Assembly (NCBI GenBank): GCA_963717525.1
Contig: OY970343.1
Span: forward strand, 1,984,001-2,048,000
DNA from: an uncultured Methanoregulaceae archaeon
GTDB lineage: Archaea > Halobacteriota > Methanomicrobia > Methanomicrobiales > Methanospirillaceae
Length of the DNA: 64,000 bases
Direction of reading: 5' to 3'
In this document: positions 36,001 through 42,000 of the stretch, piece by piece
Numbering within the stretch: position 1 is the stretch's first letter
How the letters are laid out: each line of letters starts with the position of its first letter
Program-made: the position numbers

Positions 36001-39000
36001 AGGCGCGGGAAGATGTGATACTGGAAGATCTGGAGGACCGGGTTTTCGGCAATTTCCGGCGGGCAGAACGCTTTCTGGCATTTTTTCCGGATATCATCCT
36101 CGCTGTCAGCAACTGAGATATAGTTCCCCTGCGAGGAGGACATCTTCTTGCCGTCAAGGCCGTTTAAGATCGGCGTGTGAATGCAGACCGGAGAGGGATA
36201 TTTAAAATTGGGCAAGTGCTCCCTTGCGAGCATGTGGATCTTCCTCTGGTCGATCCCGCCCACGGCAGCGTCAACGCCGAGCATCGCGATATCGGCCATC
36301 TGCATGATGGGGTAGACCATCTGCGAAACGGTCGGGTGGTCCATCTGCCTCCCCACCTCGTCCATGCTCCGGGTCGCCCGGGCAAGGGTGATCTGCTGGG
36401 AGAGCTGGTGCACGAGCAGCACGTACTCGCGGTTGAGCTGGAGATCCGAACCAAGCACATACTTCACGTTCTTAAGGCCGAGCCCCTCAAAACAGCGGCG
36501 GTTGTACTCGGCGAGTTCCTTTACCTTTTCCATGATCCCTTTCCGGTTGAGGAACGCATGCAGGTCAGCAAGGAGGATGGTGACCTCGAAGCCCGCTTCT
36601 TGGAGATCGACGAGCTTGTTTATCGTAACCAGGTGGCCAAGGTGGATCTCCCCGCTCGGCTCGTACCCTGCATAGACCTTCTTTGTGGGTTTTGCCAGAA
36701 GAGCGCGGAGTTCGTCTTCGGTGACGACTTCGACGGTGTTCCGGGTGACCCGTTCGAATGAATCCATTAAAAAGAATGGGTGATTAAGGGAGTTAATGGT
36801 TATTCTGGATGGGAGTAAACCCGAGTGCACTGTTGGTGAGTTTTATGGATGCCGTGGCCTCTTTGGCTAGGCCGGTCATCGCACGGATCGCGTCCACATT
36901 CTCAACAACGACATCAGCTTCCTGGTGAATAGCCTGGAAGAAGCAGAGCTCGTTTTTATTCGCATAGACCGACTCCTCGAAGATGCAGTTCTCGTAGAGA
37001 TCGGCCCGCTGCCGGCCGAGGTCCTGGGCAAATTCCTTGAGTTCAGCGGTACTCTTGATCGCCGCGGTCTTCTTTACGAGGCCCATGCGGGGATGGTTCC
37101 TGATAAGCTCGATCACTCTTTCGCGGTTCACGTCTTTTTTTGTCGTGATCCGGATCGCGTGCATGTGCATCATCGTAGTCGGGACGATCATGGCCATGGT
37201 CGTGATGGAAATATGCGGGAGCACGGTCTGGACATCAGGGCCATGGTGGCTGGGGACGGTCACCGGGTCAAGGACCACCGCATCGATCGGCCCTTTCTTG
37301 ATCTCGCCAGGATCGGATCCCCTGCGGACCATGATCGCATGGACGTGGGCGACACCGAACTCCTTGTCAATCTCGTGGATGATCCGGCAAAGGCCGGTGG
37401 TGTTGCAGGACACGACCCGGACAAACTGCCGGCCGATCGCATCGGCAAAATTGCAGGACGAGTTGAACGAGAACCCAGCCACCTCGTGATCTTCCCCACC
37501 CTGCCAGATCGCCTTTTTTCCGAGTTTTTCATAGAGCGGTTTGTTGGTCGCTCCCACATCCCCGGGGGTTGCATCCACAATCACGTCTGCTGCCTTACAC
37601 ATGTCTTCGACAGAACCGGAGACCGTGAGGCCGGCTTTTTCAAATGCGGCCTTTTTTGAGAGATCAGCAATATAGAGGGGATATCCCCGCTGTTTTGCGA
37701 TAAAGGCCTCGGCGTTCGGGCGGGTCTTGGAGACACCGATCACTTTCATATCCTTCTGGGCTGCAACCGCATCGGCAACGCGTTTCCCGATGGTACCGTA
37801 CCCGTTGATGGCAACCTTGATCATATGATGGAACTGTATGAACGAGATGAGATAAAGGTTGCTTGGCAGGGTCGTGAATACAGGCATCTGTCCTTTCACA
37901 GAAAGTGGAGGAAAGTTTTACAAAAACAGTGCCTGGTACTTCACGACCTCGGTGCTGTCTTTGGCTGTGGCGTACAGCTCCAGCGGTTCTTTATTGACCT
38001 CCAGGAACCGGATGCCCCAGCTGACACAGCCCAGGATCTGTGTTGCCCGCTCCTGTTCCCCGAGGATAAAGAGCGAGGCTGCTATTGCCTCGACGGAGGT
38101 TAGCTTGCAGGGTTTCCCGAAATTGACCGGGTTTGCGGCCATAAGAAAGGGCAGTGCCCGCCGGATCCTCCACGAGATGACGGCACCGGTATCCAGCACT
38201 TCCCAGGAACAGTCAAGGGCGGTAATGGATTTCACGAATCTGTCTGCCGGCGAGAGTGCCTGCTCGGCAGTCGGGTCCAGCAGAAGGGTGTTCCTTGGGA
38301 TCTGGGAAATTTTTTTAACGATCCGGAGAAAGCCGGCACGCTCAAGCTTTTTTACCGTGCACTTGCGGGGGTCGCAGCTGTTGTCCCGGTAGGCAATGAG
38401 CGGAATCATTGATTATTCTGTGCGTCCACAACTGTATCAAATGTATGTTCTCTGTTCCCCCTGTATTTTGTCCCCGTCGCTCCGGGCCAAAGGTATCACA
38501 CATCCTTCAGATATTGCCGTCTTTGCACGTTCGATCGGACGCTGCCGGAAGTTCGGTATAGACGTTGTGCCGCTCCCCTGCCCGGAGACCCTGTACCTTG
38601 GCCCGGATCGGGAGCCCGGCACGTTTCTTGAGCGGCTGAACAACCCGGAATTTGCCACGCTGCTTGAAGAACTGTGCGGGAAGGTGAACAAAATTATCGA
38701 AGAGCGGGGACCGCCCCTCTGTATCCTTGGCGTAAACTCGTCCCCGACCTGCGGGGTGACAAGCACGTATTACGGGGCGGAAGGCGACACACCGGCCAAA
38801 CGATCCGGCCGGGGGGTTTTCTATGCACAATTCCCGGATATCCCGGCGCAGGACGTCTTCGAGTTTGCGAAATACCGGATCTACCTTGCAGCCCCGCTCT
38901 TCTCGGAATCTGAGCGCACCTACAATACCACTATCGCAGCGCTGCTCAGGTCCCATTTTTACGAGGTGTACCTCCCGCAGGAAGCCGGTGACGATCACGC

Positions 39001-42000
39001 AGTGAGAGACAAAAAGGAATATGCGCAGATTTACCGCCGCAACAAAAGGGCGATCAGAGATGCGGACATTATGATTGCCATCATAGATGGGGCAGATGCA
39101 GATTCGGGGACTGCATGGGAAATGGGCTATGCTACCGGGCTCAAAAAGACGGTAATTGCTCTCAGGACAGATTTCAGGACGACCGGAAGCCATGAACGGG
39201 TGAACCTCATGCTCGAGCAGGCTTCAAAGGTGGTGTCAACTAAAGAAGAACTTCTTGTTGCACTGGGTGCCCTTCCCGCCAGTACACCGCGGCTGGGACA
39301 GACATCTGCATAAACCCCCGGTTTTCTCGTATTTTTCGCAGAGATCGTGGCCTTTTCTGAAGGAGAGACGGGCAAGTTATATCTGAATCCTGACAAATAG
39401 GTAGTGAGTGAGATGGCAAAGAAAAAAGAGGGGCGGGAAGCAGGAAAAAAACAGGGTTTTACCGGGGAGTGCGATCTTGACGGAGGATATGAGTCTTCCA
39501 TTAAAACCTTCCATGATATTACCCTCAAAAATATACAATCCCTTGTTACTGCAAGCCGGTACATCCAGACCCTCATTGTTCTCACCGTCATCGGTATCTT
39601 CTTGAGGTTCTACAATCTCGGGTTCAACTCCTTGTGGCTGGACGAAGCCAGCACCTACACAATTTCCGTAAAATCCTTCGCGGATATCTGGCAGGTCACT
39701 GCCAGTGGGGAGTTTAACCCGCCGCTCTTTTACTGGATCGAACATGTCATGCTCATGCTCGGGAATAACGAGGTTATCCTGCGCTTCATTCCTGCCCTGC
39801 TGGGTGTCCTCACGATCCCGCTCTTTTACCTGATCGGAAAGGAGTTCCTCGACCGGAACGCGGGCATCATCGCTGCTGCTGCATGTACCGTCTCCCCGTT
39901 CCTGATCTACTACTCTCAGGAAGCCCGGGCATACATGATGATGCTCTTTTTTGTCGCGCTTGCGACGATCTTCTTCCTTAAGGCTATGAAATCCGGGAGC
40001 CTGATTCACTGGATTCTCTTTGGCATCTTCTCGGCGCTGGCCTTCTGGTCGCACTTCTACGCGTTCGTAATGATCGCGGCGCTGGTGCTCTATGCACTCA
40101 TCGAATGGGCTCCACGGATCCGGACCGAACTTGCTAACCTCAAGATGCTGGTGGCAGGTGTTGGTGTCTTTGTGCTCCTGTCGCTCCCCCTGATTATTGT
40201 CACCCTCCAGCTCTTCGTCCTCCGGACATCATCGGCACCCACCTACGGGATACAGGGGCTGGGAATCATCACGGAAACCTTCAGTCAGATATCCGGGATG
40301 AACGATATCGCAATGTACCTGCTGGTTGCACTATTCGTTGTCGGGATCATCCAGGCATTCCGTATCGGGAAAAACAAGGGGATCTTCCTTGTGCTGATCA
40401 CCGTTCTTACCTTTGTTATCAGCTACATTCTCTCGTTCAAGATGCCGATGCTCCCCCGGTACCTTATCTTTTTGAGCATCGTCTTTTTCCTCGGTATCGC
40501 GGTATCTTACCGGGTCTTTTATTCTCTATGGAATACCAAGGCGGTGGTTTACGGGTTTGTTATTGTTCTCTTTGTGATCAGCGCTCCGGTCCTTGCCGGG
40601 TATTACTCGGGGTATTCAAAGGAAGACTGGAGAGGATTTTCCGCCGCCCTCCAGCAGAAGACCGTGCCGGGTGATATAGTTGTCTCTGTCCCCGGGTACA
40701 TATCCCAGCCGCTTGACTATTACTACTCCTCAACACAGGCTCAGACAAAAGAGTTAGGGGCAACAACAGCAGCCGATCTGGAAAATATCTCATCAGAGAG
40801 TGGCAACAGCACCATCTATTATGTCGTCACCGGGGATATCAGTGCGGCCGATCCGAACGGTGATGCTGTTATGTGGCTTAAGAATAATACCCAATTAGTT
40901 GGAACAGATGCCACGCAGTCAATTTATCTTTTTACCAAATCCTGATTTTGACCGGTGTGTGCCCCGATGTATGATCTGACTGTCATCATTCCCACATTTA
41001 AGGAAGAGTCCAACATCGGCACTATTATAGAAAACGTGGATGCGGTTTTTTCCCGTAACGCGATCAACGGTGAAATTCTCATCGTTGACGATAATTCCCC
41101 GGACCGGACCATTGAACTGGTCAGGGAATTACAGAAAACAAAATCGAATCTCAGTCTCGTTGTCAGAAAAGAGGATTACGGGCTCTCCCAGTCCGTCGTC
41201 GAAGGATTCCGCACGGCCCGGTCGGATATCCTCCTCGTCATGGATGCTGATCTCTCCCATCCCCCGGCGCTCATCCCGGTTATACTTGCCGGGATCCGTG
41301 ACGGTAACGACCTTGTCATCGGAAGCAGGTACATTGAGGGTGGCGGGATAAAAAAATGGCCGTTCAAGCGGCGTATCATTTCTATGGGTGCAACGTTACT
41401 TGGCCGGTTGCTTTTTCCTGATATTTCCGATCCAGTGAGTGGGTTTTTTGCTGTCCGAAAAAGTGTTGTAACCGGGGCACAACTCACACCCCGAGGGTAC
41501 AAAATACTTCTGGAAGTGCTGGGTAAGGGCATTTGGGAGAATGAAAAGGAAATACCATTTGAATTCAGTGATCGGGAGATTGGTACAAGTAAACTGAAGA
41601 TCAAGACAATCATTGAGTACGCTCAGCAGGTCGTGGCTATTGCGGGTTATTCATTGTTTCATCACAAGAGTGCCGTATGGAAAGAATGGAAAAATGCTAT
41701 TAAGTTCAGCCTTGTAGGTGTTTCAGGCATCGTGGTAAATGAAGGAATCCTCATCTCTCTCAAGGAATTCGCAGGATTCTCCATTCCATTGGCAAGCGTT
41801 TGTGCCATCGAATTATCTATTGTGAATAATTTTATCTGGAATGATTGGTGGACATTTAAAACAAGCCAAGGACACTCATTATCTAACTGGTGGCACCGAT
41901 TTGTTGTGTTTCAAATTATATCAATTGGCGGTGCATTCGTCAATTTTGCGATTCTTATCACTCTTACCTTAATAGCAGGTATTGATTATCGGATCTCTAA

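Follow-up and report, generated by a model that had tools for sequence, protein, structure and literature searches.

A TudS-fold domain is rigidly joined to an NDT-family nucleoside transferase domain in one polypeptide across nearly the whole archaeal order Methanomicrobiales, and conserved residues together with the predicted structure lead us to suggest, tentatively, that this protein disposes of tRNA-derived thio-nucleosides by base release and [4Fe-4S]-dependent desulfuration, with 2-thio substrates slightly favored. The gene lies in a 64,000-nucleotide stretch of DNA from an uncultured Methanoregulaceae archaeon (the window; Table 1), where it forms a single open frame of 290 aa. Its M1 at 38441 is invariant in 30/30 aligned homologues; an upstream alternative ATG at 38396 would run into tsr3. 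The predicted structure is a confident two-domain model (pLDDT 87.6, pTM 0.85), the junction from G125 to Y148 measures 23 residues in 27/27 diverse fusion sequences, and the two domains are equally conserved in these sequences (mean identity 58% vs 59%). The TudS-type/NDT-fold fusion claimed in the first-pass annotation is genuine: one frame, with both folds matched, fixed across nearly the whole order.

Table 1. Features of the fusion locus (window coordinates)
Feature	Position	Strand	Basis
tsr3, 16S rRNA aminocarboxypropyltransferase (DUF367)	37918..38409	-	NF002621 above cut-off; conserved divergent neighbor
Head-to-head spacer between tsr3 and fusion gene, 31 bp	38410..38440	.	Start-to-start offsets across loci
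Fusion gene P0001, 290 aa, TudS-related Fe-S domain + NDT-family N-glycosidase/transferase domain	38441..39313	+	Profile matches, alignment, model
N-domain, aa 1-140, CD3072-like/PF27735 branch of DUF523	38441..38860	+	Profile, fold and residue matches
C-domain, aa 144-280, tetrameric-type NDT	38870..39280	+	Profile, fold and residue matches

The fusion protein is matched in 195 of 201 genomes of the order, and the match reaches two-domain level (E ≤ 2.4e-86, from our own count of the best-E column) in 176 of the 200 genomes other than our own, which agrees with its earlier description as near-universal in Methanomicrobiales. The same fusion was not found outside the order, and no independent origin appeared among 173 scanned relatives; four two-stretch matches considered as independent fusions (P0135, P0154, P0192 and P0265) proved to be tandem NDT repeats and were rejected. 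Among 322 genomes of the phylum outside the order, 42 carry both halves as separate genes, 18 the N-domain alone and 58 the NDT domain alone, and in three genera within the order (g15, g22 and g32) only the NDT half is present. In an unrooted tree of the N-domain, in which one row (L047) is incomplete, a long branch of about 1.6 changes per site separates the fused domains from the stand-alone genes. A PF04463 match above cut-off is present in 47/121 order genomes, as a separate gene in 45, and the one such gene that was translated is RudS-type; these genes are patchy in the order, and the RudS branch of the tree is very long (length 4). Among the matches listed, the literature searched contained no paper on this fusion, which papers on DUF523 architectures or their supplements might mention.

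Modeled alone, the N-domain matches TudS (6z92) with Z 11.0 (rmsd 3.2, 132 aligned; next best Z 5.7), and the top five Foldseek hits are all TudS (E about 2e-3), although structural identity is only 15%. TudS surfaced by fold search only; a PDB sequence search with the N-domain profile gave no TudS match. The best family match is to the CD3072-like putative desulfidases (NF045597, aa 3-133, E 5.7e-14), with which the domain has the L-P-C-P-E and S-P-x-C-G motifs in common, but its 52.1 bits lie below the 130-bit cut-off, and in the rest of the phylum its relatives occur as stand-alone proteins of ~145 aa. PF04463 likewise scores under its cut-off (aa 5-130, E 6.5e-4, 20.2 vs 34.7 bits), which 2 fusion orthologues reach. 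The Pfam 38 family PF27735 (2-thiour_desulf_put), as assigned in precomputed annotation, is found on the nearest Atlas clusters and on ~70 of 120 homologues by hand count, so that the domain had been called unannotated only in part correctly. Activity data for PF27735/CD3072 members were not found in the literature searched.

The residues of the N-domain point to a distant relative of TudS rather than to a canonical member. According to PMC10611767, TudS binds its cluster through C10, C43 and C104, uses Glu45, Ser101 and Ser103 for catalysis, and lines its substrate pocket with Arg17, Tyr18, Pro102 and Tyr110, Tyr18 sandwiching base and sugar. The predicted cluster ligands are kept as had been reported, C47 and C104 in 168/168 fusion sequences and C8 in all 164 that cover it, as are the Glu and first Ser (E49 and S101, 168/168), the Glu-orienting Arg equivalent to Arg54 (R57, 164/168), the phosphate-binding Arg (R15, 165/165), the pocket Pro and an aromatic at 110. 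The Tyr18 position, in contrast, is Ala16 (Ala in 163/165), the Ser103 position is variable (T 147, A 13, S 5, C 2, V 1), and an additional helix carries invariant D24, R34 and C35. The first-pass assignment to TudS stands for fold and cluster cysteines, but the domain appears to belong to the distant CD3072-like/PF27735 branch of putative desulfidases, of which other fusions exist; its reading as a third TudS architecture is not supported. In RudS (PMC11417400), an s4U de-modifier of tRNA, the TudS fold is likewise combined with a further domain, but there the partner is the C-terminal, tRNA-binding DUF1722 domain, whereas here it is a PF05014 enzyme domain.

PF05014 matches aa 147-257 of the C-domain well above cut-off (E 2.2e-27, 95.9 vs 28.8 bits), and the C-domain model resembles DpNDT (7o62; Z 18.3) and other tetrameric NDTs (Z 16-18) more closely than DNPH1/MilB structures (Z 12-13). 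Its motifs comprise Y148, P179-Q180, a D184-x4-R189 flap, R242-x-D244-x-R246 and N255-L-M; D219, D221, the nucleophile E227 and N255 are present in 168/168 fusion sequences, as are the Tyr and NLM of the family. DpNDT, EfPDT (7m5h), CtNDT and the archaeal N-ribosyltransferase AvNRT (PMC7308715) share the fold and, apart from a Phe in AvNRT where the C-domain has Tyr, the Tyr, 5'-OH Asp, nucleophile Glu, NLM and xDxR motifs, whereas the C-domain differs in its replaced acid Asp, its flap and its fusion. The 5'-hydroxyl is met by D82/N118 in CtNDT and D94/N127 in DpNDT; DNPH1/Rcl and MilB share fold and nucleophile, but the phosphate-binding serines (S98/S128' in DNPH1) are replaced by Asp221/Asn255 here. 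By sequence comparison, the pocket is of the 5'-OH type of nucleoside transferases and not a DNPH1 phosphate pocket, so the earlier label of nucleotide N-glycosidase/DNPH1 is not supported; D219 and E227 are invariant as claimed, but it is D221 rather than D219 that provides the Asp of the 5'-pocket. The acid position 201 (CtNDT D62, DpNDT D74) is N in 146, H in 18, C in 3 and D in 1 of 168 sequences. Such a change does not disable the enzyme, as CtNDT D62N retains ~50% efficiency with more hydrolysis; lacking a fixed acid Asp, the C-domain may favor hydrolysis over transfer. CtNDT bearing Tyr, the deoxy-preferring signature, processes ribosides ~100-fold more slowly. The C-domain would be an obligate dimer and is probably a tetramer.

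The divergence of the fusion gene from tsr3 noted in the first pass is confirmed in 49/50 fusion loci, with a start-to-start offset of 30-49 bp in 44 of the 49. Of the genes within 4-kb flanks of 20 diverse fusion loci, tsr3 recurs in all 20, whereas gapdh recurs in 2 and the mannosyltransferase gene in 1. The NDT-only genes of g15, g22 and g32 occupy the same tsr3-divergent site in 5/5 loci; near stand-alone genes, no tsr3 was found at 19 N-domain or 20 NDT loci. This association is real, yet need not be functional: the spacer probably holds overlapping divergent promoters, and a shared promoter region of 31 bp can keep two genes paired even when no functional link exists between them. In family f7, where both halves occur as separate genes, the gene for a stand-alone relative of the N-domain follows an NcsA/TtuA-family tRNA 2-thiolase gene on the same strand, at a distance of 1.1-4.2 kb, in 29/33 genomes, which is probably one inherited arrangement and not an operon. 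Outside f7 this linkage is absent and the neighbors are purP or gapdh.

To our knowledge, it is only for 4-thiouridine in bacteria, through TudS and RudS, that the fate of a thiolated tRNA nucleoside has been established. In the mechanism proposed here, a nucleoside with a free 5'-OH would bind the NDT domain, and attack of Glu227 on C1' would release the base; the open iron of a three-Cys [4Fe-4S] cluster in the N-domain could take up the thiocarbonyl sulfur, and water activated by Glu49/Ser101 would give the oxo-base and sulfide, both sites acting on one molecule. Substrates of the 2-thio type (wobble xm5s2U) may be slightly preferred to 4-thio ones. Retention of the TudS cluster Cys, Glu, first Ser and Arg and of the NDT catalytic set, coexistence of the separate halves, the 2-thiolase neighbor in f7 and the ThiI and NcsA-like proteins encoded in the own genome are consistent with this disposal. 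Also in its favor, TudS binds 2-thio compounds non-specifically, 2-thiouridine docking only under constraints (PMC10611767), and the Tyr18 position is Ala here. According to the same paper, the activity of canonical TudS on 4-thio-UMP exceeds that on the base >2000-fold; prior base release would thus not help such an enzyme.

Several observations count against disposal of thio-nucleosides. The two pockets disagree on phosphorylation (invariant R15 vs a 5'-OH pocket), Y148 is a deoxy-preferring signature but tRNA yields ribonucleosides, and single halves are frequent outside the order. Genera g15 and g22, despite lacking the N-domain, retain both thiI and ncsA, and this loss comparison therefore does not separate 2-thio from 4-thio. 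Rather doubtful is the narrower version in which one protein would dispose of 2-thio wobble nucleosides (xm5s2U type), first cutting away the sugar shielding C2=S, then desulfurizing the freed base; if true, the putative PF27735/CD3072 branch would consist of 2-thio-directed desulfidases, filling a gap beside the 4-thio-specific TudS and RudS. The salvage of thiolated nucleotides suggested in the first pass fits poorly with the distribution of UPRT (22/121 order genomes) and thymidine kinase (0/121) and with the preference of TudS for 4-thio-UMP. With uracil reuse closed to most of these archaea, the gain would be detoxification and sulfur recovery, not base salvage, and disposal is more likely than recycling.

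The main rival, which we consider plausible but less probable, holds that the two activities are independent: the N-domain would desulfurize a thio-nucleotide in TudS-like fashion through Arg15, and the NDT domain would act as the general nucleoside N-glycosidase/transferase of these archaea, for example freeing purine bases for Hpt, in a fusion that arose once and was then locked in. The mismatch between R15 and the 5'-OH pocket, stand-alone NDT orthologues in 56/57 f7 genomes, with or without the N-domain, the NDT-only genes at the tsr3-divergent site and the lack of a second origin among the scanned relatives all fit, as does an own genome with Hpt above cut-off and an MTAP-like sole PNP-family gene. 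The invariant junction length, the two-domain model and relaxation of flap D184/R189 in the lineage carrying the NDT half alone argue against independence.

In an unlikely alternative, the protein would act on a purine nucleoside that carries sulfur (6-thio or 2-methylthio type), the desulfurized purine re-entering via Hpt in true salvage. Hpt is present and UPRT mostly absent; L108, a protein with the AvNRT motifs and 39% identity to the C-domain, is of a type preferring 2-aminopurines through Glu40, the equivalent position 181 is E or D in 162/168 sequences, and CtNDT and EfPDT likewise prefer purines. However, TudS-family activity on purines was not found in the TudS literature as far as covered, the sole thiolase neighbor found belongs to a pyrimidine 2-thiolase family, and we know of no natural 6-thiopurine source in methanogens. 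Still less probable is that the N-domain is an Fe-S sensor, a regulator of the NDT domain or a sulfur carrier, since it keeps the catalytic Glu, first Ser and Glu-orienting Arg, whose mutation abolishes RudS activity. Its low identity to TudS, sub-cut-off PF04463 and NF045597 scores, changed Tyr18 and Ser103 positions and extra C35 would suit such a role. Removal of 5'-methylthioadenosine, the by-product of Tsr3, by N-glycosidase and C-S cleavage is very improbable: it would explain why tsr3 is retained when other neighbors rarely are, but the pocket formed by D221/N255 is made for a 5'-OH, 5/5 genomes tested already have an MTA/MTI phosphorylase-like gene (which in the own genome adjoins a deaminase-like one), the 39 stand-alone loci above lack a nearby tsr3, and the promoter region could pair the genes.

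The order-wide, single-copy fusion offers a handle on an uncharacterized archaeal branch of TudS-type Fe-S enzymes, in a small protein to which available TudS and NDT assays could be applied. The naturally occurring combination of Tyr and Asn/His/Cys in its NDT domain may interest nucleoside biocatalysis, and the protein bears on how sulfide-rich methanogens, mostly without UPRT, clear modified nucleosides.

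The fusion gene forms a single 290-aa frame (Table). Its C-half is a clear NDT domain by profile (PF05014, E 2.2e-27), and its N-half matches PF04463 (DUF523; E 6.5e-4) and the CD3072-like model NF045597 (E 5.7e-14), each under its cut-off. The predicted structure of the whole protein has a pLDDT of 87.6 and a pTM of 0.85. Folded alone, the N-domain model matched TudS (6z92) with Z 11.0, the next chain scoring 5.7, while the C-domain model matched DpNDT with Z 18.3, other NDTs with 12.6-16.9, MilB with 13.4 and Rcl with 12.2. The fusion proposed in the first-pass annotation is real; it joins two known folds and defines the order Methanomicrobiales.

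Features discussed, in window coordinates unless a contig or locus is named
Feature	Position	Strand	Remark
Fusion gene	38441-39313	+	single frame, 290 aa
tsr3	37918-38409	divergent from fusion gene	31 bp away from fusion start
Housekeeping cluster	29110-37899		flank of the fusion gene
TyrS-RIO1 ORF	35007-36830	-	607 aa
ncsA-like gene, source genome	C1:111119-111997		read in pieces
MTA-deaminase-like gene	L126:869-1471		read in pieces
Stand-alone NDT, directly followed by DUF5591 gene	L108:3403-4044		family f8
Stand-alone NDT, directly followed by DUF5591 gene	L111:3460-4140		family f8
Second, stand-alone CD3072-like gene and gene run	L059:2342-6169		genome G167; 124 bits

Matches to the fusion occur in 195 of 201 genomes of the order (coordinates for the best 150 of 212 matches), with a two-domain-level score in 176 of the 200 other than the source genome, counted on the best-E column. 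Fourteen of the 24 genomes below this level belong to three genera, g15 (presumably Methanocorpusculum, at a guess), g22 and g32; 11 of them keep an NDT-level score and three have no match. At all five loci examined in these genera an NDT-only gene still diverges from tsr3, and no N-domain was found in the seven genomes searched. Partial scores in seven more genomes traced, in the five checked, to contig ends, contig splits or frameshifts, and a further three genomes, 76-83% complete, lack a match. The fusion is the sole DUF523 match in the source genome. PF04463 exceeds its cut-off in 47 of 121 genomes of the order, in two of them through the fusion itself, which leaves a patchy separate canonical gene in 45 (loci L079-L090), RudS-type in the one translated. 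Among metagenomic fusion forms, P0125 and P0128 have a decayed N-domain and P0124 a degraded NDT motif set; these may be paralogues or sequence errors.

Beyond the order, 322 genomes of the phylum carry both halves as separate genes in 42 cases, the N-domain only in 18, the NDT only in 58 and neither in 204; as the genomes are related, these counts do not amount to a statistical test. The N-domain relatives are short frames of ~140-200 aa (19 loci translated). A profile search over 1.84 billion representatives (the best 150 among 5070 hits) and a longer-form search (23 hits) gave, among the matches listed, eight proteins with both halves, and because all are 43-68% identical to our protein, we infer one origin of the fusion. 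MFS, ECF S-component and Dus are further partners found fused to this N-domain branch, as single-contig records; about 1% of DUF523 proteins fall in other architectures (PMC11417400). The fusion architecture is already visible in databases, including Pfam 38: about 70 of 120 homologues, counted by hand, carry a precomputed PF27735 match, and JGI names homologues 'nucleoside 2-deoxyribosyltransferase/predicted secreted protein'. The literature searched describes neither the fusion nor a PF27735 member with tested function; Zhou 2021, Aucynaite 2018 and Munneke 2025, outside its scope, may bear on this.

In 27 diverse sequences the domain junction is always 23 residues and mean conservation is equal (58% and 59%), which fits a rigid unit, short of proving a shared substrate. 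R15 (phosphate) and the D221/N255 pair (5'-OH) point to different phosphorylation states. That one chain carries two independent activities is the main alternative, which we regard as less likely than not.

Residues reported for DpNDT are Y16, D74, D94, E100, N127 and M129 (PMC12372993); in CtNDT D82 and N118 make contacts to the 5'-OH, and a clash with the 2'-OH comes from D62 (PMC10913048); DNPH1 binds phosphate through S98 and S128' (PMC10603095). Y148, D221, E227 and N255-L-M are present in 168/168 fusion sequences. The Asp/Asn pair is missing from phosphate-accepting members (PMC12884076), and its retention here marks the C-domain as a nucleoside enzyme, so that 'nucleotide N-glycosidase', the earlier title, finds no support. 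The acid position is Asn in 146, His in 18, Cys in three and Asp in one; the CtNDT variant D62N retains about half the efficiency with more hydrolysis (PMC10913048), with no gain of ribonucleoside activity (PMC12645435). The stand-alone protein of L108, 39% identical to the C-domain, bears the motifs quoted for AvNRT, a ribosyltransferase with Phe7 that prefers guanosine (PMC7308715). Tyr148 points to a deoxy preference, an argument against a substrate derived from tRNA. The fusion also has a flap motif, D184-x4-R189 (D184 in 165/168, R189 in 168/168), which 12 of 13 stand-alone NDTs of family f7 share and which is relaxed in NDT-only members of the order; speculatively, it may recognise a charged substituent on the base. 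A thio-purine substrate appears improbable.

TudS holds its cluster with C10/C43/C104 and uses E45, S101 and S103, with R17 contacting the phosphate and Y18/P102/Y110 the base and sugar (PMC10611767). Mapped by aligning 6z92 with a RudS-type protein and by comparing profiles, C47, E49, S101, P102 and C104 occur in 168/168 fusion sequences, C8 in all 164 covering it, R15 in 165/165 and R57 in 164/168; position 110 is aromatic (168 sequences) and position 103 is Thr in 147, Ala in 13, Ser in five, Cys in two and Val in one. Unlike TudS, the fusion has Ala for Tyr18 in 163/165 sequences and an additional invariant C35. The chemistry looks preserved and the pocket altered; a non-catalytic Fe-S domain is very improbable. 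In a tree with an unreliable root, fused domains, stand-alone relatives (97/96) and RudS (100/100) form three groups, ~1.6 changes per site separating the first two.

The tsr3 gene diverges from the fusion in 49 of 50 loci, with a start-to-start offset of 30-49 bp in 44; when 20 diverse loci are compared with 4 kb of flank, all 20 keep tsr3, two keep gapdh and one a mannosyltransferase gene. Around 19 stand-alone N-domain loci and 20 stand-alone NDT loci there is no tsr3. Overlapping promoters could explain this lock. The housekeeping flank comprises genes read from their translations as cdc6-like, Hel308-like helicase and Cgi121-like, with a KH-domain protein, RIO kinase, TyrS and GAPDH-II. 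The apparent TyrS-RIO1 fusion ORF is produced by a frameshift close to where TyrS ends, with a TyrS-like C-terminus and stop in another frame, and is probably an assembly error; the fragmented ncsA-like and MTA-deaminase-like frames are likewise consistent with indel errors.

In 29 of 33 genomes of f7, which we guess is probably Methanosarcinaceae, the stand-alone N-domain gene follows an NcsA/TtuA-family gene (277-304 bits on NF047749, under the 500 cut-off) on the same strand at a distance of 1.1-4.2 kb, an opposite-strand DUF7847 gene between them; the two are far apart in two genomes and on other contigs in two. This is probably one inherited arrangement. In other families purP or gapdh takes the place of the NcsA/TtuA-family gene. 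In f11, f17 and f18 (L057, L062, L063, L064) the stand-alone TudS-related gene directly adjoins gapdh, both on one strand, acylphosphatase following in three of four loci, and these genomes have no NDT match; in f23 (L051, L052, L061, L067) it comes after purP and a conserved gene of 142-171 aa that matches neither Pfam nor NCBIfam. In single lineages a stand-alone NDT has thiI (L097) or DUF5591 (L108, L111) nearby. DUF5591 is linked to ArcS, a possible tie to archaeosine metabolism. The L059 gene is closely packed with a QueC/DUF7411-like PP-loop gene, a 397-aa gene and an HD-domain gene, and together they could form a mobile or defence cassette.

Removal of MTA, for which methanogens have a described route (PMC6302742), is a weak idea and hardly to be credited, given the MTA/MTI phosphorylase-like gene in five of five genomes, adjoining a deaminase-like gene in the source genome. 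The nucleotide-salvage logic first advanced also fails: UPRT was found in 22 of 121 genomes of the order (0/27 in the family of the source genome) and thymidine kinase in 0/121, so in most of the order freed uracil would not be reusable by these routes. The source genome encodes Hpt, two copies of ThiI and NcsA-like proteins.

TudS prefers 4-thio-UMP to 4-thiouracil by a factor of >2000, and its binding of 2-thio compounds is non-specific (PMC10611767); growth on 2-thiouracil was supported by no RudS (PMC11417400), and detoxification is a demonstrated role of bacterial TudS (PMC12210855). For the fusion we lean towards 2-thio substrates because, on chemical grounds, C2=S adjoins the sugar, because Tyr18 is lost and because relatives lie near a 2-thiolase gene. 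Tyr148, Arg15, the frequent separation of the halves and the retention of thiI and ncsA in four of four tested NDT-only genomes count against this. Our preferred reading, quite possible if short of probable, is that the base is released at Glu227 of the C-domain and undergoes [4Fe-4S]-dependent desulfuration by the N-domain; the outcome would be disposal of thio-nucleosides derived from tRNA, together with recovery of their sulfur.
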